The notes under the pieces were generated by a model, which was given only the letters and a program-made list of their open reading frames with translations, searched no databases and was not told the DNA's origin. A stretch of DNA of 43,065 bases from an uncultured Acidimicrobiales bacterium (GTDB lineage Bacteria; Actinomycetota; Acidimicrobiia; Acidimicrobiales; Hopanoidiivorantaceae). Below, in pieces: positions 2,898-39,629 of this stretch. The number at the start of each line of letters is the position of its first letter. The stretch's first letter is position 1. The translations under genes and the position numbers were made by a program. The stretch spans positions 1-43,065 of the forward strand of contig CAZERQ010000053.1 in assembly GCA_964514465.1 (NCBI GenBank), given 5' to 3'.

Positions 2898-4043
2898 TCA
2901 GGAGTTCTCGATGGCCGAAAACGTCTCATAGTCCTCGCTGGTGTCCTCCAGATGCTCGAACTCGATCACACCCAACTCGGTGAAGCGGTCGCGCAGCCAG
3001 CCGTCGGCCGCGTCCAGCAGTCCCAGCTTGCGGCAGTTGGGCACAATCCTGGAGAACAGCATCTTCTGGAAGGTCATCTTCTCCATCGGCAGCGCCAAAA
3101 ATATCTCCACCATCTTGCGCGACGGCACACCCATCCGCTCCCAGACTTCCTGCGCCAGGAACCTGTCTCTCATTCGCAGCGCCGCCTCAAAGGCGAACAC
3201 CTGACGATCCCTGATTTCGGCGGCCGACAGATCCTGATAGAGCTCCTGCAGGCTGATGACCCCGAAGGCCACGTGGCGCGCCTCGTCGGCCATGACATAG
3301 CGCAGCAGTTCCTTGAGCAACGGCTCGTCGGTCATATGGCGCATGAAGCCGAACGCCGCCAGCGCCAGACCCTCCACCATGATCTGCATGCCCAGATAGG
3401 TCATGTCCCAGCGGCTGTCTGAGATGATGTCGTCCAGCAGCAGGCGCAGGTGCGGGTTGATGGGATAGGAGTTGCCGATCTTTTCGTTCAGATACTTGCC
3501 GAACACTTCCACGTGGCGGGCCTCGTCCACGACTTGGGTGGCGGCGTAGTATTTGGCGTCAATCCAGGGCACGGTCTCCACGATCTTGCCGGTGCAGACC
3601 AGCGCGCCCTGCTCGCCGTGGAGGAACTGGCTGAGCCGCCAGGCCACGACCTCGGTGTTGAACTCGGCCCATTCCTTGTCGCTCCAGTTGCGCACGGGCG
3701 AGCCGGGGCCGGAGATGTCCTCGATGGTGGGCGGGACGTCCTCCACCGGCGCCAGGATGTTGGTGGGGTCGACTTCGATGCTCCAGTCCAGGTCGACTTC
3801 GGCATTCCACTGCGACCGCTTGGCCTTCTCATAGAGCTTCTCCAGCTTGGGTCGGGCGCCTTTGGAATAGTCCCAGGTGAACAAGGTGTCGGCGTTGTTG
3901 ACCACATCGTGGAAGATGCTGTCTTCGCCGGCGTTGAATTCGGCGATGCTGGCGATGCGCTCGACATCGTTGGCGGTGGCCTGTTCGGTTGAGAACGGGG
4001 TTGTGAGTTTCTCGGCTTTGGGGTTCTCTGTTGTGATGCTCAT
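2898..4043 (-). CDS. Ferritin-like diiron protein (AurF/N-oxygenase-like superfamily)
   Basis: Two DEARH motifs (DEARHVEVF, DEARHVAFG) plus HGEQ and VEG carboxylate ligands. TATAAT upstream at 4088-4093 on the minus strand. Confidence 0.8.
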   Translation of the reverse strand: MSITTENPKAEKLTTPFSTEQATANDVERIASIAEFNAGEDSIFHDVVNNADTLFTWDYSKGARPKLEKLYEKAKRSQWNAEVDLDWSIEVDPTNILAPVEDVPPTIEDISGPGSPVRNWSDKEWAEFNTEVVAWRLSQFLHGEQGALVCTGKIVETVPWIDAKYYAATQVVDEARHVEVFGKYLNEKIGNSYPINPHLRLLLDDIISDSRWDMTYLGMQIMVEGLALAAFGFMRHMTDEPLLKELLRYVMADEARHVAFGVISLQELYQDLSAAEIRDRQVFAFEAALRMRDRFLAQEVWERMGVPSRKMVEIFLALPMEKMTFQKMLFSRIVPNCRKLGLLDAADGWLRDRFTELGVIEFEHLEDTSEDYETFSAIENS

Positions 4044-16084: not shown

Positions 16085-16236
16085 ATTCCTGTTTCAGCCG
16101 TTGCGCCAACCCCGGCTTCGGCCCCGGCCTCGCCCCCGGCTGTCGCGCCACATATTCCTGTCCCGGCCATTACGCCAGATATCCAAGTCATAAATTATTT
16201 AAAGTCTAAACTCTATTTTGGCTAAACGATATTGGG

Positions 16237-16264
16237 CAAAAATGTCAGACCCCCCTGCCAAAAT
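16237..16264 (+). promoter_or_regulatory. RecA-NDp/PafBC-like promoter, copy 1
   Basis: TGTCAG (16243-16248), N10, CAAAAT (16259-16264), 7 nt before ATG 16272. The 18 bp CAAAAATGTCAGACCCCC are identical to 21566-21583. The -10 has C instead of the consensus first T. Confidence 0.55.
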
Positions 16265-16271
16265 ATGCATT

Positions 16272-17129
16272 ATGACTAAAACCGACCCGCAATCCCAAAC
16301 CCCCAGGGCCGCGCCCAATCGAGCCTCTCCCGGCGAAACCGCGTCCCACCAGACCGCGCCCAGCCGGGCATCTCCCGCACCCGCGCTGTCTGGCAGGGTC
16401 GCGCTGATCACCGGCGCCGGACGGGGCATCGGTCGCGCCGTGGCCGAGCGGCTGGCGCAGGCGGGGGCAGCCGTGGTTTGTGCCGCCCGCAGTGCCGACC
16501 AGATCGAAGAGGTGGCCGCAGGCATAGTCGCATCCGGCGGGCGGGCCGTGGCGGTGGAGGCGGACGTGAGCGTGCGCGAGTCGGTCAGCCAGCTTGTGGC
16601 GCGGACGCTGGAAGCCTTCGGGCAGCTGGACATACTGGTGGCCAACGCCGGCGCGGTGCATCCATTCCAGTTGGCCTGCGACATCGACGACCGGGACTGG
16701 CAGCGCATGCTGGACGTCAATTTGAGCGGGGTGCATTACTGTTGCGTGGAAGCGACTGAGGCGCTGTCCGACGGCGAAGGCGGCCACATAATTATCATGG
16801 GGTCAGGACAGGGGCATCGTCCCAGCGAGGGTCTGGCAGGTTATTGCGCCACCAAGGCGGCAGTGGCGATGTATGCGCGGGTGCTGGGGCTGGAGCTGCG
16901 GCCAAAAGGTGTCTGCGTGAACGAGCTGGTGCCGGGGCCGGTGCGCACCGAGCTTTTGGCTGGCTTGGTGAACCAGCCGCTGGAGGCGCTTCATTCAGAC
17001 GATTTTCAGATCGCCGGCGACTGGGTGAAGAACCCCGAGGATGTGGCCGAATATGTTCTGTTTCTGGCCAGCCAGCCGACCCACGGCGCCAGCGGCCAGA
17101 GATTCAGCATGTTGCGGCGTGACGGCTAG
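16272..17129 (+). CDS. Short-chain dehydrogenase/reductase (SDR)
   Basis: TGAGRGIG, ANAG and catalytic YCATK. Confidence 0.92.
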   Translation: MTKTDPQSQTPRAAPNRASPGETASHQTAPSRASPAPALSGRVALITGAGRGIGRAVAERLAQAGAAVVCAARSADQIEEVAAGIVASGGRAVAVEADVSVRESVSQLVARTLEAFGQLDILVANAGAVHPFQLACDIDDRDWQRMLDVNLSGVHYCCVEATEALSDGEGGHIIIMGSGQGHRPSEGLAGYCATKAAVAMYARVLGLELRPKGVCVNELVPGPVRTELLAGLVNQPLEALHSDDFQIAGDWVKNPEDVAEYVLFLASQPTHGASGQRFSMLRRDG

Positions 17130-17167
17130 CCGGCGGACAAAGTTTGTCATATCCAAGGACAGGTAAG

Positions 17168-17926
17168 ATGACCACAATAGTTCAAAACCCCCATTTGGCC
17201 CGCAGGCTGACGGAACCAGTGGAGCCCGCTTCAATTGAAATAGAGGAAAGCGACTTCAGGGATTTCCTTGGCAAGCTGGAATCCAACAGCATTGACCTCA
17301 TCTTGACAGATCCTCCCTACACAATCAGTCGAGACACGGGCTTTGCCAAAGTCAAAAATGGCGTTGACCGGTTTGCGGTGAGCATGGATTTCGGGGAATG
17401 GGATAAGGCGGAAATTGACCTTGACATTTTGGCAAGCGAGGCATATCGCACTCTGAAACGGGGAGGCACAGCCATAATCTGGTATGACCTCTGGAAGATA
17501 ACCAAACTGGAGCTTGCCATGAAGCAAGCGGGTTTCAAAATGTTGCGACTTGTCATCTGGCAAAAAACTAACCCAGTCCCCCTGAACCAGAGAGCCACCT
17601 ATCTTTCAAACAGCCGAGAGATTGCCGTTGTTGGCGTCAAGGGTGGGAAGCCAGTGTTTAACGGAAAATATCACAACGGAATTTACGAATATCCAATACC
17701 ACGACACAATGGCAAGCGGATTCATCCAACTCAAAAGCCGCTGGATTTGTTTGTCGATCTGGTTGAAATGCACAGCCGGCCGGGTGATCTTGTGGTTGAC
17801 CCATTTTTGGGAGGCGGCACAACTGCTGTGGCAGCTCTGCAGACAGACAGGTGTTTTGCGGGTTGTGATATTTCTTCAAAATACGTGCAGGCTTCAATCG
17901 ATCGCCTGAGGGAGTTAGCGAAGTGA
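17168..17926 (+). CDS. DNA amino-methyltransferase, beta-class (N6-A/N4-C)
   Basis: Motif IV DPPY precedes HPTQKP and motif I DPFLGGG (beta order). AT-richer than flanking genes. Confidence 0.93.
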   Translation: MTTIVQNPHLARRLTEPVEPASIEIEESDFRDFLGKLESNSIDLILTDPPYTISRDTGFAKVKNGVDRFAVSMDFGEWDKAEIDLDILASEAYRTLKRGGTAIIWYDLWKITKLELAMKQAGFKMLRLVIWQKTNPVPLNQRATYLSNSREIAVVGVKGGKPVFNGKYHNGIYEYPIPRHNGKRIHPTQKPLDLFVDLVEMHSRPGDLVVDPFLGGGTTAVAALQTDRCFAGCDISSKYVQASIDRLRELAK

Positions 17927-18558
17927 GCAAAAAAATTGCAGCTAGCCAAGGGCACAAAAGCAAGAGGGAGTTATTCTTGGAACTCGCCCAACCGGACAAG
18001 GATGGCTTTTCGCGAGAAGTGAATATCGCTGAATTTGTGGGGCGTTATGAAAGATTAAGATTTGGCAACGGCGCGGACTGGTGTCGTGACGATTCCACAC
18101 TTGCCAAAACTTACAATGTCGTCCGTCATAAGCAGGGCAACAAGATCCATGCAATTGAGCTGCATGGGCTAAAGAAGGTGCCGATTTCCAAGCCTATACC
18201 CAAAAAAATTCGCTCAGAAATCGTCCAACAGAGATGCGTGGTTTTGGATGTCGGAAAAGTCGAGTGCGACCACAAGGATGGGCGGCGCGATGATCCGAGA
18301 TTGAACGATCCAACACTCGTTACGCTGGACGATTTTCAGCCGCTGTCCAAAGCAGCCAACAATGCCAAACGGCAGCACTGCAAGAATTGCAGGGAAACGA
18401 ACCTGCGTTTTGATGCCCGTAAGCTGGGATATAACGTGTCCCAAGTCAAGGGGAACGGCCACTACAGGGGCACATGCATCGGCTGCTATTGGCACGATCC
18501 CAAATTCTTCAACCAAGAAGCCACCAAACCAGACACGACCAAAGGACAACCCCAATGA
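17923..18558 (+). CDS. NlaIII/IceA-like HNH type II restriction endonuclease
   Basis: ELFLELAQPD...GFSR, GNGADWCR, DHKDGR, FQPLSKAANNAKRQHCKNC and CIGCYWHDP match my recollection of R.NlaIII/IceA1 motifs. GTGA overlap with the MTase stop. Confidence 0.82.
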   Translation: MSKKIAASQGHKSKRELFLELAQPDKDGFSREVNIAEFVGRYERLRFGNGADWCRDDSTLAKTYNVVRHKQGNKIHAIELHGLKKVPISKPIPKKIRSEIVQQRCVVLDVGKVECDHKDGRRDDPRLNDPTLVTLDDFQPLSKAANNAKRQHCKNCRETNLRFDARKLGYNVSQVKGNGHYRGTCIGCYWHDPKFFNQEATKPDTTKGQPQ

Positions 18559-20045
18559 CCACCCAACCAAACATTCTGCTGATCGTTTCAGACGAGGAGC
18601 GCCGCAACGACTGGCTGGCCGGCAAGGTTTCGCTGCCCGCGCATGAGCGCCTCGCAGCTGACGGCCTCAGCTTCAACCATTACTACACCCACTCCTCGCC
18701 CTGCTCGCCTTCCCGGGCCAGCTTATATACGGGCCAGTATCTGGCCGACCACGGGGTGGTGGACAACGTCAGCTTTCCGGCCCACACTGCGCTCAACCCC
18801 GACATCCCCACGGTCGGCTCGCTGCTGGGGCAGGCGGGCTATCGGTCGTCCTATCTGGGCAAGTGGCATCTGTCGCACAGCCCCCAACCCGACATGTCCG
18901 CCCATGGCTACAGCGACTGGGCCGGCTCTGACCAGCATTTCACCGGCGGCCCCTGGAGCGGGCGCAAGTTCGATCCCGTGATTGCCGAACAAGCCGTCGG
19001 CTGGCTGCGACAGCACGGCGCTGGCGACACCCCCTGGTTTTTGACCGTGGCGCTGGTCAACCCGCACGACATCATGTGGTATCCGATCGACCACCTGTCA
19101 TATCAGGAACAACATCCAGATGACGTGGCGGCGTTTCGGTTCATGATTGACTACATGCTCAAGGGCATTGACCTGACCGCCCCGCCGGAGGACTACCCCG
19201 AGCTGTTTGACTCTTTGCCGGAGAATTTCGAGGACGACCTGCACACCAAACCGGAGGTTCAGCGGGCTTGGCGCACCGTGCGCAACAACGAACATTTTGT
19301 GGGGTCGATGTCGCTGGACGACCACCGCTCCTGGTTGCGCCAGCTTGACTATTATGCCTGGCTGCATGAGCGACTTGACGACAGCCTGCAGAGCATTCTG
19401 GGGTGCCTGGACGAATTGGGCATCTATGACGACACCACCATTTTGTATACCTCCGACCACGGTGACGCCTGCGGTTCGCACGGCTTGCGGGCCAAGCTGC
19501 CTTGCGTCTATGAGGAAGTCATGGGCGTGCCGCTGATCGCCAAGCCGGGCGGCGGCTTCGAGTTTGCCGGCCAGCACACCGACGCACTGGCAACCCACGT
19601 GGATCTGGCGGCCACCATCTGTTCTATGGGCGGGCTCAGCTTGTCGGATCTGCCGTCAGTTGCGGGCAAGGATCTGTCGCCGTTGCTGTCCGACCCAAGT
19701 GCCAAGATCAGGGATTGGGTGTTCTTCTCCCAGGACAGCGCGCAGTCGGATCTGATCAGCAACTGCCGCTATTCAGTCAGGGGCTTCTTTGACGGCACCA
19801 CCAAATATGCCCGCTATTTCGGCATCGGCGGCGGGATAAGACGAGCGGGCGAAGCGACCAACGAGCAGAAGCTGTTCGGCGCCGACGCCGACTTCGACGA
19901 CCACGACCACGAATGGTATGACCTGAGCGAGGACCCCCACGAACTTGAGAACAAGGCCCACCTGCGCTCCAACCGCAACCAGCTGCGCCAGCTGTTTGAC
20001 CAGCTCCTGGAGATTGAATCCCAGGAGTTGCGCAACGCCGGCTAG
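18555..20045 (+). CDS. Sulfatase (formylglycine type), apparently cytoplasmic
   Basis: PNILLIVSDE, CSPSRASLYTG, GKWHL, NPHD and SDHG. ATG overlaps the REase stop (ATGA); no obvious signal peptide. Confidence 0.92.
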   Translation: MTTQPNILLIVSDEERRNDWLAGKVSLPAHERLAADGLSFNHYYTHSSPCSPSRASLYTGQYLADHGVVDNVSFPAHTALNPDIPTVGSLLGQAGYRSSYLGKWHLSHSPQPDMSAHGYSDWAGSDQHFTGGPWSGRKFDPVIAEQAVGWLRQHGAGDTPWFLTVALVNPHDIMWYPIDHLSYQEQHPDDVAAFRFMIDYMLKGIDLTAPPEDYPELFDSLPENFEDDLHTKPEVQRAWRTVRNNEHFVGSMSLDDHRSWLRQLDYYAWLHERLDDSLQSILGCLDELGIYDDTTILYTSDHGDACGSHGLRAKLPCVYEEVMGVPLIAKPGGGFEFAGQHTDALATHVDLAATICSMGGLSLSDLPSVAGKDLSPLLSDPSAKIRDWVFFSQDSAQSDLISNCRYSVRGFFDGTTKYARYFGIGGGIRRAGEATNEQKLFGADADFDDHDHEWYDLSEDPHELENKAHLRSNRNQLRQLFDQLLEIESQELRNAG

Positions 20046-20065
20046 AAAACCAAAGAAACAAAAAG

Positions 20066-21271
20066 CTACAGCCGGATCAGTTGGCCTTCCCACAACTGCT
20101 TGCAAAAATCCTGATAGGGCAACACCAGAATGCCATCGTCCAACTTCATGGCCCGCGGCGCTCGGCACACCACAATGCGCGTCTCAAAACTGGAGTATTT
20201 CTTGTGGAGCGCGCGCAAACCCTTCAGGTGATGTCCTGAGATGGTCTGGCTTGATTTGGCTTCGATGGCCAGCCAGTCGCCCACCAGAAAATCCACTTCA
20301 GGCCCGTTGTGTTGCCCCCAATATGAAAGCCGGTTGCCCTGTCTCATGGGCGGATTGTTATATGCCAGATAGGTGGATAGCTCGTGGAACACCCAATTCT
20401 CAAAGGCCTTGCCAAAGTCCTGTGAACCCCCTTCGACAACCTCTCCCCTTTGCGCCAAAAAATTGACCATCCCAACATCGCAGAAATAAAACTTGGGCGA
20501 CATGACTTCGCGCCCCTTGGGTTTCTTGCTGAAGGACGGCAACCACTGACCCAGCTTGGTGTCTTCCAAAATTTCAAAATAGTTCTTCACGGTTTTTTCA
20601 TTTACGGAGCATTCGCTGGCGATATTTGAAATGGTGACTCCGCTGGCATCGCGCAGCGCGGCAGCATCCAAGAAATTCCTGAACCTCGGCAAGTTTCTAA
20701 CCAGCCCTTCCTGCGCTACCTCCTGGCGCAGATAATCTCCCACATAGGAATTGAGATAGTCCTGGGAGCTTTCCGACTGATAGGCAGCCGGGAAATACCC
20801 CGCATTGAGGATTCGCTGCAGATTAAAATCGGCACCCAACTCCCCGGAAGCCATGCCCCGCAGATCATAGCGCCGTCCGCGGCCGCCCAGGAGATTGCCG
20901 CCTTGGCGAATCAACTTTATGGGGCTGGAACTGCAAAGCGCAAACTTGTAGCCCCTGTTTTCCATCATCCAATGGACTTCGCTGAGCAGACCCGGCACAG
21001 CTTGAATTTCATCAATCACAATTTGCGTGTCGGCCGAAGGCGGATTGGCTTCCAGCTCAAGTCGGAGGCTTTCAGGATTTTGGCTGTATTGGGAGAAGTT
21101 GTTGCTCAAAAGCAGATCCACCCAGACATTTTCGCCCTCCGGGTAGCGTTGCCTGAGCAGGGTGCTTTTGCCAACTTGACGGGGCCCCCAGAGAAAAAAA
21201 CTTTCTTGGCCCGGCTCGGGCAGATCCAGTGCGCGCTGATACATTCCCGCATGCTGATTCATACCCATCAT
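20066..21271 (-). CDS. AAA_14 ATPase with C-terminal DUF4143 (nuclease-like) domain
   Basis: GPRQVGKST (Walker A), IVIDEIQ (Walker B), PKFYFCDVG, FENWV and EVDFL...IEAKS. AT-richer. Confidence 0.88.
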   Translation of the reverse strand: MMGMNQHAGMYQRALDLPEPGQESFFLWGPRQVGKSTLLRQRYPEGENVWVDLLLSNNFSQYSQNPESLRLELEANPPSADTQIVIDEIQAVPGLLSEVHWMMENRGYKFALCSSSPIKLIRQGGNLLGGRGRRYDLRGMASGELGADFNLQRILNAGYFPAAYQSESSQDYLNSYVGDYLRQEVAQEGLVRNLPRFRNFLDAAALRDASGVTISNIASECSVNEKTVKNYFEILEDTKLGQWLPSFSKKPKGREVMSPKFYFCDVGMVNFLAQRGEVVEGGSQDFGKAFENWVFHELSTYLAYNNPPMRQGNRLSYWGQHNGPEVDFLVGDWLAIEAKSSQTISGHHLKGLRALHKKYSSFETRIVVCRAPRAMKLDDGILVLPYQDFCKQLWEGQLIRL

Positions 21272-21565
21272 TTTAGGGGATTATCAGCTTATTTCCAGTT
21301 TTTTTGAAAAAATCAGTATAAGCACTCCGGAATTTGCGCAAAACCCGGTAGTAAGGCGGTGGAATACGACGTTTCGGCTGGTTTTCTAGACGGGCTCCCC
21401 AGGCAGGTTCGCCGGACGATCCAAGCAAGTTCGCCGGGCGAGTAGCGCCATCGCCAACTCGTTAGCCCGTCCACCAGACCATCACGACTAGCAATTTTTT
21501 CGGGTTGCTACAGCAGCACAACCCAGCACCCATCCACCAAATCCATTGAAAAATCAGACAATTGC

Positions 21566-21593
21566 CAAAAATGTCAGACCCCCACATTAATAT
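21566..21593 (+). promoter_or_regulatory. RecA-NDp/PafBC-like promoter, copy 2
   Basis: TGTCAG (21572-21577), N10, TAATAT (21588-21593), 6 nt before ATG 21600. Fits TGTCRG-N10-TANNNT. Confidence 0.65.
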
Positions 21594-21599
21594 AGTCAT

Positions 21600-22634
21600 A
21601 TGGAAGACACAATGACAAAGGCCAACAAACTTGACCACCCGAAGCCAAGTCGCCGCGGGCCAGACTACCGCGAGCCAGAGTGTCGCGGGCTAGACCACCG
21701 CGAGCCAGACCAATCCAGAATTATTTTGGGGGATGTCCTGGACGTTCTCGATAGCCTGGGAACCCAGGCAAAATTCGATGTGGTCATTGCCGACCCGCCC
21801 TACAACATCGGAAAAAACTTCGGAAACAATGACGACCAGATGGAGTTGGCCGACTATGTCGCATGGTCGCAACAATGGCTTGACCGTTGTTTTGATGTGC
21901 TGGAGGACCATGGGCTGATCTATGTCTATGGATTCCCTGAAATCCTGTCTCATCTGGCCGTCAAATTTCCTGTTGGCGAACAGCGCTGGCTAGTTTGGCA
22001 CTACACCAACAAAGCCGTGCCGTCTTCCAAATTCTGGCAGCGCTCCCACGAATCGATTTTGTGCCTGTGGAAGCCGGGCAACAGGCGGCCCGCTTTGGAG
22101 GTTGATCAAATCAGGGTTCCCTACACCAGCAATTATCTGAAGTGTGCCGGACGGGAACGAGCTGCCACCGCCAGTCGTTTCGGAGGCAAGAATGGCAGGG
22201 TCACCACATACCGAGCCCACGCAAACGGAGCTTTGCCCCGCGATGTCATCTCTGTCCCGGCGCTGGCTGGTGGGGCGGGAGCGGTTGAAAGGTGGTTCTT
22301 GTGCCGGGACTGTGGAGATCGGGTTTTTTCTCCATCGGAAACCGGTGAACACAAATCGCATGACGTGCTCAAGCACCCAACTCAAAAGCCGATGGAGCTA
22401 ACGCGGCAACTTTTGCTTTCCCGGATTGAAGGGCCCCGAATTGAAGGACAGGGGGGAAGTGTTTTGATTCCGTTTGCCGGCTCTGGATCAGAATGTGTGG
22501 TGGCCCGGGATTTGGGGGCGAATTTTCTGGGGATCGAAATGAACCCGGAATTTGTTGCGCTCGCCAATGGGTGGCTTCAGCATCCGCTCACCGACAGCGA
22601 ACAGCTTGAGAGCGAGATGCTATGTATCGCCTGA
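21600..22634 (+). CDS. DNA amino-methyltransferase, beta-class, with CxxC-x12-HxxH insertion
   Basis: DPPY, HPTQKP and IPFAGSGS. The segment CRDCGDRVFSPSETGEHKSH lies just before HPTQKP. 30-bp repeats at the 5' end (21633-21710). Confidence 0.92.
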   Translation: MEDTMTKANKLDHPKPSRRGPDYREPECRGLDHREPDQSRIILGDVLDVLDSLGTQAKFDVVIADPPYNIGKNFGNNDDQMELADYVAWSQQWLDRCFDVLEDHGLIYVYGFPEILSHLAVKFPVGEQRWLVWHYTNKAVPSSKFWQRSHESILCLWKPGNRRPALEVDQIRVPYTSNYLKCAGRERAATASRFGGKNGRVTTYRAHANGALPRDVISVPALAGGAGAVERWFLCRDCGDRVFSPSETGEHKSHDVLKHPTQKPMELTRQLLLSRIEGPRIEGQGGSVLIPFAGSGSECVVARDLGANFLGIEMNPEFVALANGWLQHPLTDSEQLESEMLCIA

Positions 22635-23218
22635 CTCCGAACATGCTGCAGGAATTTGAGCGGAGCCTGCGCGAGTTTCACAATCTATTTGACGGAAACC
22701 GCTGCAGTGGCTGGCAACTGGAGGAATTAATCGTCAAGGCGATACGATCCGACAACACAGCCAGCCACCATGCCATATGGAAAGAGGGTGGCCATGACAT
22801 CGCGGCCGACATAGTCGTGCGCGTCAACGGGAATGAGCATGAGCTGCAGATCAAATCAGGGCAGATTGTCAGCCGCGGCAAGTGCCTGCAGATCTCCGGC
22901 TACCGCTTGGGAAGGTTCGACGGAGACCTGGCTGGGATTTCTAATTTCCTGAATCAGCCCAGAGCCAACATAAATGCCACACCATACAAAAAACTTGACG
23001 GCGACACTGGGCGACGCCATAGCTACACCTTTTGCTATATCGACAGCAGCCACCTGCAGGGCCTAGGTTCGACAAACTGGGAAAAACATGGGAAACAATG
23101 GATACAGACCAATGCTGCCGGTGTGAAATTCTCACTTCGGCCAACACAGAGTTGGCAAATCTGGTGGGACATCCCTATGGCTTTGGCGGAACAAGCACGA
23201 GTTATCGAGATCAATTAA
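22622..23218 (+). CDS. Putative restriction endonuclease (PD-(D/E)xK-like, QxK variant)
   Basis: Overlaps the MTase stop by 13 nt. A helix with LEE, then ADIVV...ELQIKSG spaced like a PD-(D/E)xK core. Same AT-richer composition. Family not recognised. Confidence 0.6.
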   Translation: MYRLTPNMLQEFERSLREFHNLFDGNRCSGWQLEELIVKAIRSDNTASHHAIWKEGGHDIAADIVVRVNGNEHELQIKSGQIVSRGKCLQISGYRLGRFDGDLAGISNFLNQPRANINATPYKKLDGDTGRRHSYTFCYIDSSHLQGLGSTNWEKHGKQWIQTNAAGVKFSLRPTQSWQIWWDIPMALAEQARVIEIN

Positions 23219-39503: not shown

Positions 39504-39629
39504 GGTGGTGGTCTTTCGGTGTGGGTCGTGGGTTTTGGTGGGGTCAGATATTCTGCTTGCTTTCAAGTTTAGTCAGAGGGCCGGACATTTTTCCCCGAAG
39601 CGAGTCGCCCAGAGCGCGAGCCGGCCGTC

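Follow-up and report, generated by a model that had tools for sequence, protein, structure and literature searches.

Are the two restriction-modification (R-M) modules on one contig of an uncultured Acidimicrobiales bacterium wired to the same DNA-damage promoter? R-M systems are usually seen as self-regulated, by C proteins or promoter methylation. The contig (CAZERQ010000053.1 of assembly GCA_964514465.1; 43,065 nucleotides (nt), analysed in full and called the window here) carries the 18-mer CAAAAATGTCAGACCCCC identically at 16237-16254 and 21566-21583. The answer that we consider reasonably probable from the sequences compared here is that both copies mark promoters activated by the WYL-domain regulator PafBC, which would raise R-M expression when single-stranded DNA (ssDNA) accumulates. 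An earlier reading of the DNA letters (the original prediction) had reported the 18-mer at both positions, continued as TGTCAG-N10-(C/T)AnnnT with an ATG 6-7 nt further on, and the sequence agrees at both. The -10 hexamer is CAAAAT at 16259-16264 (site 1) and TAATAT at 21588-21593 (site 2), followed by an ATG after 7 nt (16272) and 6 nt (21600), respectively.

16235..16264, plus strand: PafBC-type promoter site 1, with an A-rich flank at 16235-16242, TGTCAG at 16243-16248, a 10-nt spacer and CAAAAT; 20.4 bits
21564..21593, plus strand: PafBC-type promoter site 2, with TGTCAG at 21572-21577, a 10-nt spacer and TAATAT; 22.0 bits, the maximum of the scoring matrix

The loose pattern TGTCRG-N10-YANNNT has seven matches in the window and 0.70 ± 0.75 in 100 shuffles, and high scores are confined to sites 1 and 2 (20.4 and 22.0 bits), the other five matches scoring 3.7-11.3. 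In a simple consensus scan, neither site showed a plus-strand sigma-70 -35/-10 pair. All scores come from a matrix trained on recA promoters only (n = 25; 20 loci from other families and 5 from this family), which was flattened by hand at position 6, at the last six spacer positions and in the middle of the -10 hexamer. The window's genome (G000, a 1.78-Mb assembly that is 77% complete) was compared with four relatives, of which G001-G003 share its genus and G004 its family only; motif spellings in these four were derived from fetched loci.

Across G000 the exact 18-mer has seven copies, one of them before recA (G000:C138). Sites of at least 20 bits number 17, compared with none in each of five block-shuffled genomes, and 31 sites reach at least 16 bits. 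When 30 seeds with TGTCAGACC were collected, the -10 hexamer stood at spacer 10 in 18 of them and at spacers 7-9 and 11-14 in 0-4. These data bear on the possibility of a dispersed repeat, named by the original prediction as its own refutation; the 18-mer would then terminate such a repeat or a mobile element, and its position before genes would be a by-product. A 222-bp duplication (91% identity) with the motif at its start does bracket an R-M cassette in G001, where it covers a small open reading frame and flanks a methylase and an EcoO109I-family endonuclease (L088:511-732 and 3564-3785). Similarly, three tnpB (IS605-type) genes in G000 have a related TGTCTG variant 6-7 nt before their ATG (L018 = G000:C194; G000:C63:15639; G000:C37:715). 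However, blastn found no flank similarity among the 17 strong sites, only the -26 region and the -10 hexamer are conserved, the stretch between them being variable, and the recA sites are orthologous across the class, with spellings that shift genome-wide by lineage. The fixed 10-nt spacer and the dissimilar flanks therefore indicate a promoter read by a protein, and the repeat explanation is largely refuted and in our view very improbable.

The recA genes of G001-G004 are also preceded by the motif, and so are 20 of 24 recA loci from other Acidimicrobiia families, mostly with the spelling TGTCAC-ACCCC. The G000 sites fit the published PafBC consensus tGTCgg(N10)tA(N3)T (PMC8635444), and no SOS boxes (taken as GAAC-N4-GTTC) were found within 150 nt of the 31 motif sites. 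A genome devoid of pafBC had been proposed as a second way to refute the prediction, but G000 encodes adjacent pafB and pafC genes on contig C63, and its assembly has no WYL matches besides these two. Its PafB aligns to the 7P5X and 9FND chains (E 5e-21) and retains Arg46 and Arg50, which in Mycobacterium smegmatis are the residues reading GTC, as described in PMC8635444. Thus, with the same motif at recA and pafBC in the genome, the claim of a PafBC-type promoter stands, and on sequence grounds the 18-mer motif is this genome's version of the PafBC (RecA-NDp) promoter.

Genes downstream of the strong G000 sites include, by Pfam, recA, dnaB, comM-dprA, two DEDDh exonucleases, tnpB, six methyltransferases and several unknowns. 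The association with methyltransferases was analysed using DNA-methylase matches to four Pfam families, gathered from G000 and the four genomes closest to it. After removal of 12 second-match rows 107 genes were scored, and eight of them with too short an upstream sequence were dropped, leaving 99. The cut-off for a directly headed gene, at least 16 bits, was set after the score distribution was seen. At this cut-off the motif directly heads 6 of 16, 7 of 23, 3 of 20, 4 of 23 and 6 of 17 methylase genes in G000 to G004, respectively, and the pooled count of 26 of 99 is descriptive, some N6_Mtase matches possibly not being DNA methylases. The resulting share is 26% of methylase genes versus about 1-2% of all genes. 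For G000 alone, the background is about 17 of 1,417 other genes with a motif according to a crude gene caller (Fisher p ~6e-8); because this caller overlooked genes of low GC content, four motif-headed methylases among them, it served for the background estimate only. In the form of a strong over-representation of methylase genes behind the motif, the predicted tie between R-M systems and this promoter is borne out.

Another source of such an association would be passive capture, in which R-M cassettes land behind any available promoter and PafBC control is real, incidental and unselected. D12 methylases do lie directly behind recA in G001 and G002 (L272, L273), with an N6/N4 match after recA in G004 (L027), and in G000 a D12-class methylase begins at the lexA stop codon (L271, G000:C182:3869-5836, minus strand), the lexA upstream region having SOS-box-like sites. 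In addition, about three quarters of the methylase genes have no motif, and one of the two window modules sits within an older operon (see below). This explanation is at odds with the 26% share, with the involvement of unrelated methylase classes (beta, Eco57I-type, type I HsdM, type ISP and D12) and with the leaderless register of five of the six motif-headed G000 methylases, whose ATG lies 6-10 nt past the -10 hexamer. It also sits poorly with a cassette shared by G000 and G004 that is preceded in each host by that host's own spelling. We consider passive capture improbable.

The spelling differs by genome: the consensus is AAAA-TGTCAG in G000 and G003, ATGC-N-TGTCAC in G001 and G002, and AAAT-TGTCAC in G004, and methylase promoters share the spelling of their own genome's recA. 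The shared cassette encodes the second window methyltransferase (MT2), whose G004 orthologue (64% identical) carries the motif in the G004 form, 6 nt ahead of the start codon. Since the MT2 promoter is spelled per host, it does not travel unchanged with the cassette, and it may have been gained or re-spelled in the host. In a control set of MT2 homologues (80 listed matches from Poribacteria, Dehalococcoidia, Proteobacteria, one archaeon, a few other Acidimicrobiia and G001), none of the 78 scorable loci reached 13 bits. In other families the motif lies within 700 nt of 7 of the 30 methylase loci examined (from 49 matches), all seven belonging to one widespread methylase family, so the link is older and wider than the family studied here. 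That methylase is present in about one copy per genome, and its motif was seen in seven other-family genomes and in G001 (L352, L358-L360, L363, L367, L369; L051).

The genes around the two window sites show how each module may have come under this control.

16272..17129, plus strand: short-chain dehydrogenase (SDR) of 285 amino acids (Pfam adh_short, E 5e-54), predicted to be leaderless with its ATG 7 nt after the -10 hexamer
17168..17926, plus strand: MT1, an N6/N4 (beta-class) DNA methyltransferase (Pfam N6_N4_Mtase, E 3.6e-34; PADLOC MTase_II; GC about 50%)
17923..18558, plus strand: ICEA-family HNH endonuclease, predicted restriction partner of MT1 (Pfam ICEA, E 2.5e-50)
18555..20045, plus strand: sulfatase, the original second gene of the SDR operon (Pfam Sulfatase, E 9e-43), adjoining the SDR gene in G001-G003
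20066..21271, minus strand: AAA_14/DUF4143 ATPase (Pfam; PADLOC candidate PDC-S01, E 3e-54), divergent from site 2
21600..22634, plus strand: MT2, an N6/N4 DNA methyltransferase of 344 amino acids, predicted to be leaderless (Pfam, E 2e-30; PADLOC MTase_II)
22622..23218, plus strand: protein of 198 amino acids, a PD-(D/E)XK type II restriction endonuclease by predicted fold and partner of MT2

These assignments agree with the SDR-methyltransferase-endonuclease-sulfatase run and the methyltransferase-nuclease pair of the original prediction, by Pfam matches for the former and by predicted fold for the second nuclease. In the first run the ICEA gene start overlaps the MT1 stop codon and the ICEA stop codon overlaps the sulfatase start, and the stretch from SDR to MT1 showed no terminator-like site, so MT1-IceA is likely co-transcribed with the operon. 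The gene order in G001, G002 and G003 is hydantoinase A, promoter, SDR, sulfatase; among the four genomes compared, the MT1-ICEA pair lies between SDR and sulfatase in G000 only. The G003 SDR orthologue has the same length and a full motif 7 nt before its ATG, as in G000, and G001 and G002 retain degenerate versions. The R-M genes have a GC content of 50-56% versus 62-67% for the SDR and sulfatase genes. From the R-M-free operons of the three relatives it follows that MT1-IceA was inserted into an existing operon and would thereby have come under its promoter; three separate losses of the pair are a less likely alternative. Direct repeats were looked for around the insertion and none were found. 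The claim that both sites head R-M modules therefore stands for site 2, at MT2, whereas site 1 is, on this synteny, the older, ancestral promoter of the SDR-sulfatase operon, present in G003 without any R-M genes.

The second module appears to have a different history. MT2 has relatives 53-66% identical in many unrelated phyla, and for this widely shared cassette we infer that a promoter was fitted directly to the MT2 start codon and gained within the family. Its 198-amino-acid partner has no sequence match in Pfam, PADLOC, NCBIfam or the PDB, and none of its 104 homologues has a Pfam domain. A structural model built from a 66-homologue alignment has a predicted local distance difference test score (pLDDT) of 94, and the alignment shows conserved residues E34/E35, D63 and Q76-x-K78. 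The top rows of the single Foldseek search behind the fold assignment are MvaI, 3ndh, Hjc, SwaI, DpnI and EcoRV (best E 1.3e-3, none below 0.001), making type II restriction endonucleases and Holliday-junction resolvases the nearest solved structures, and its Atlas neighbours carry SmaI (19%) and ThaI (15%). The protein is thus predicted to be a restriction enzyme. For the ICEA-family endonuclease of the first module, PADLOC gave no restriction endonuclease match. In G003 a deletion removed the promoter and most of MT2 and left the predicted nuclease frame, joining a broken ATPase gene to the last 48 MT2 codons (L338:3091-4407, G003:C64). In the window, the AAA_14/DUF4143 ATPase gene lies between the two R-M modules, and a minus-strand sigma-70-like site at 21589-21618 (10 of 12 positions) overlaps the -10 hexamer of site 2 and is directed at the ATPase gene.

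The regulator itself is altered in this genus. The arginine pairs of the WYL domains, R211/R214 in PafB and R201/R204 in PafC by M. smegmatis numbering, read Ala/Arg and Lys/Gln in G000. At the PafB Arg211 position G001, G002 and G003 have Asn, Asn and Ser, whereas G004 retains arginine, as do all 39 genomes examined from other families (19, plus 20 picked from 89 matches). The second PafB arginine is also displaced in G001 and G002. PafC Arg204 is replaced by Gln in all four genus genomes and is Arg in 19 of 19 others, a count that excludes G004, where the stretch used reaches the contig end and does not include pafC. According to PMC11804915, ssDNA binding was lost in the M. smegmatis PafB R211A/R214A double mutant, and the PafC pair was dispensable in vitro. 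The altered arginines therefore lower the case for a canonical, ssDNA-gated PafBC and leave that for a promoter read by PafBC as it was.

Accordingly, the main competing explanation is that the promoters depend on PafBC without being gated by damage, the ssDNA switch having been lost or retuned so that recA, the R-M genes and housekeeping genes are expressed steadily. We regard this as rather unlikely, and the same holds for its stronger form, in which PafBC of this genus would have been rewired into a retuned or standing sigma adaptor with a lost sensor arginine, an extended lineage-specific operator and a docking promoter for incoming R-M cassettes and even for essential genes, dxr among them. 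Besides the replaced arginines, steady expression would suit methylases, which are needed constantly for chromosome protection, and it would fit the motif before dxr in four of the five family genomes (13.1-18.5 bits) and in none of 19 other-family genomes (best 6.6). The dxr sites indicate that the regulon took in housekeeping genes, including in G004 with its intact PafB arginines. On the other hand, G004 places dxr and 6 of 17 methylases behind the motif while keeping those arginines, and PafB of the genus retains Arg181, Tyr196, Arg204 and Arg208, as well as Arg214 in G000 and G003. The dispensability of the PafC pair in vitro also speaks against a lost switch, and the M. smegmatis arginine mutants described in PMC11804915 were inactive rather than constitutive. 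Furthermore, the WYL activator DdaA has the same change of the first arginine to alanine and is still damage-induced (PMC12392091). A direct link between Arg211 loss and the recruitment of dxr or R-M genes was considered and is not supported, G004 having both the arginines and the recruited genes.

Under the preferred explanation of damage-activated promoters, and by analogy with M. smegmatis, ssDNA would bind the WYL domains of PafBC, PafB would read the GTC of the -26 element, PafC would hold domain 4 of SigA, and RNA polymerase would start about 7 nt after the -10 hexamer, at the ATG, producing a leaderless mRNA. Between inductions, some basal transcription that depends on PafBC probably maintains methylase expression, as suggested by the behaviour of adnA (PMC8682763) and by the presence of dxr and dnaB behind the same promoter. 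Restriction systems are likely switched up by DNA damage in this bacterium.

Several observations count against this account, beginning with the arginine replacements in PafB and PafC. Motifs had been expected at repair genes, and recA has one, but uvrA, uvrB, uvrC (185 nt of upstream sequence only), uvrD, lexA and recQ of G000 have none, and ruvC has a weak one (8.9 bits); the scarcity at uvr genes also fits steady expression. With Escherichia coli queries, ssb, ruvB and radA gave no match in the incomplete G000 assembly. About one third of the strong G000 sites lie before genes of metabolism or housekeeping (dxr, HtpX, LLM monooxygenase, 5'-nucleotidase and the window SDR), and a window amidohydrolase also lies behind the motif. 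The first -10 base of site 1 is C instead of T, as it likewise is in the dnaB promoter of G000 and the recA promoter of G004. The MT2 orthologue of G001 lacks the motif. As a direct promoter, it is missing from 10 of the 16 methylase genes of G000 and from 73 of the family's 99, and the 26 of 99 that are headed do not represent independent trials, the five genomes being kin and some cassettes orthologous.

The original prediction described the link as unreported, and this part did not hold. In Table S1 of PMC8682763, M. smegmatis MSMEG_3213 and MSMEG_3214 respond to ciprofloxacin and UV with log2 values of 2.35/2.41 and 2.10/2.40 in the wild type versus 0.26/0.41 and 0.01/0.24 in the pafBC deletion, and according to PMC11279042 the two are a homologue of MamA and the cognate restriction enzyme. 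Table S4 of the former paper places M. tuberculosis Rv3263 (MamA) and Rv2024c (MamB) under "PafBC dependent" for UV and ciprofloxacin, whereas its main text contains no occurrence of restriction, methylase or methyltransferase; the names MamA and MamB, and MamA as a methylase without a cognate endonuclease, are those given in PMC11279042. In another phylum, experiments have shown that DdaA increases both R-M transcription and defence against phages once mitomycin C is applied, and its motif precedes 27.2% of Acinetobacter R-M systems (PMC12392091). A search of titles and abstract openings, with subscription papers, Mueller 2018 and bioRxiv supplements outside it, returned no statement of PafBC control of R-M systems and none on Acidimicrobiia. 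R-M genes may already be discussed in the principal paper on the regulon, Mueller 2018 (Cell Rep), or in Rafique 2025, which PMC12848934 cites for PafBC and phage resistance. Control of R-M by a WYL damage activator is therefore known in principle and is present, unremarked, in mycobacterial data. New here are its scale, the lineage-specific spellings, the recruitment of housekeeping genes (dxr) and the loss of PafB Arg211 in four of four genus genomes.

Compared with the M. smegmatis PafBC regulon, the system shares the bipartite TGTC-N12-TANNNT element without a -35 at recA, a pafB-pafC pair with Arg46/Arg50 and a complete type II R-M pair under that regulator. It differs in the large number of R-M cassettes involved, which are unrelated and horizontally shared (26 of 99 methylase genes across the five genomes), in the longer, lineage-specific motif (AAAA-TGTCAG-ACCC), in uvr genes that mostly lack the motif and in the altered WYL arginines. 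As with MamA and MamB of M. tuberculosis, compared by gene class and not by sequence, DNA methyltransferase genes are tied to PafBC; however, MamA has no cognate endonuclease, and the M. tuberculosis set comprises two genes among those looked up. DdaA of the Moraxellaceae is likewise a WYL damage-response activator with a motif before R-M genes and alanine in place of the first WYL arginine. In contrast, it is a different protein in a different phylum, has its binding position some 50 bp ahead of the start site, probably does not act by sigma adaptation according to its authors, and also controls CRISPR-Cas (PMC12392091). BrxR and CapW resemble the system in WYL-domain control of anti-phage genes, but the same paper describes them as local repressors encoded in the defence locus, whereas PafBC would be a global activator encoded elsewhere.

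If an ssDNA-sensing global activator does drive a quarter of this lineage's R-M genes, defence and methylation would be tied to genome stress, and cells could restore methylation on repaired DNA and step up restriction during phage or prophage activity. The DdaA result would then extend to Actinomycetota through a different mechanism, and the unremarked PafBC dependence of mycobacterial methylases would deserve another look. The loci also show how one lineage wires acquired R-M cassettes into its own regulation, in the context of sponge symbionts that are described in PMC5649159 as rich in R-M systems, and the natural PafB Arg211 variants offer a ready test of that residue's role.

Restriction in G000 may be of long standing: its genome strongly avoids GTAC (observed/expected 0.21) and AAGCTT (0.19), which suggests restriction that has been active there for a long time. 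Strong sites also precede genes without a Pfam, NCBIfam or clear PADLOC match (L003:6200-7622, L008:3-929, L014:1631-2704 and L017), among which the L014 gene has weak MTase_II similarity only (E 4e-4); these are candidates for unrecognised defence genes. In G004, defence-type genes behind the motif include an AbiP2 reverse transcriptase (728 nt downstream), two Panacea antitoxins and a PDC-S06 ATPase, together with HsdM and a D12 methylase with a HaeIII-family endonuclease (L119, L121-L123, L125). Two other proposed connections were abandoned. An operon running from a methylase on contig C60 into coaE-uvrB has an opposite-strand reading frame in between, and within 1,500 nt the 14 coaE loci compared yielded one loose match to the motif and no convincing one. 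Capture of an nrdB promoter by a G001 cassette was rejected, nrdB lacking the motif in four of four other genomes.

Upstream of the G000 run rimO-pgsA-cinA-recA, the motif is followed by a short DUF5131 remnant (L004:5400-5498, G000:C138, minus strand), a gene that is intact in G003 (L064). The window itself contains a third, weaker site, overlooked in the original prediction.

39566..39595, minus strand: PafBC-type site with TGTCCG (13.6 bits), 62 nt before an amidohydrolase gene, which is not an R-M gene

The orthologue of this amidohydrolase in G003 has a strong copy of the motif (L110), and the element in the window lies at 39587 on the minus strand.

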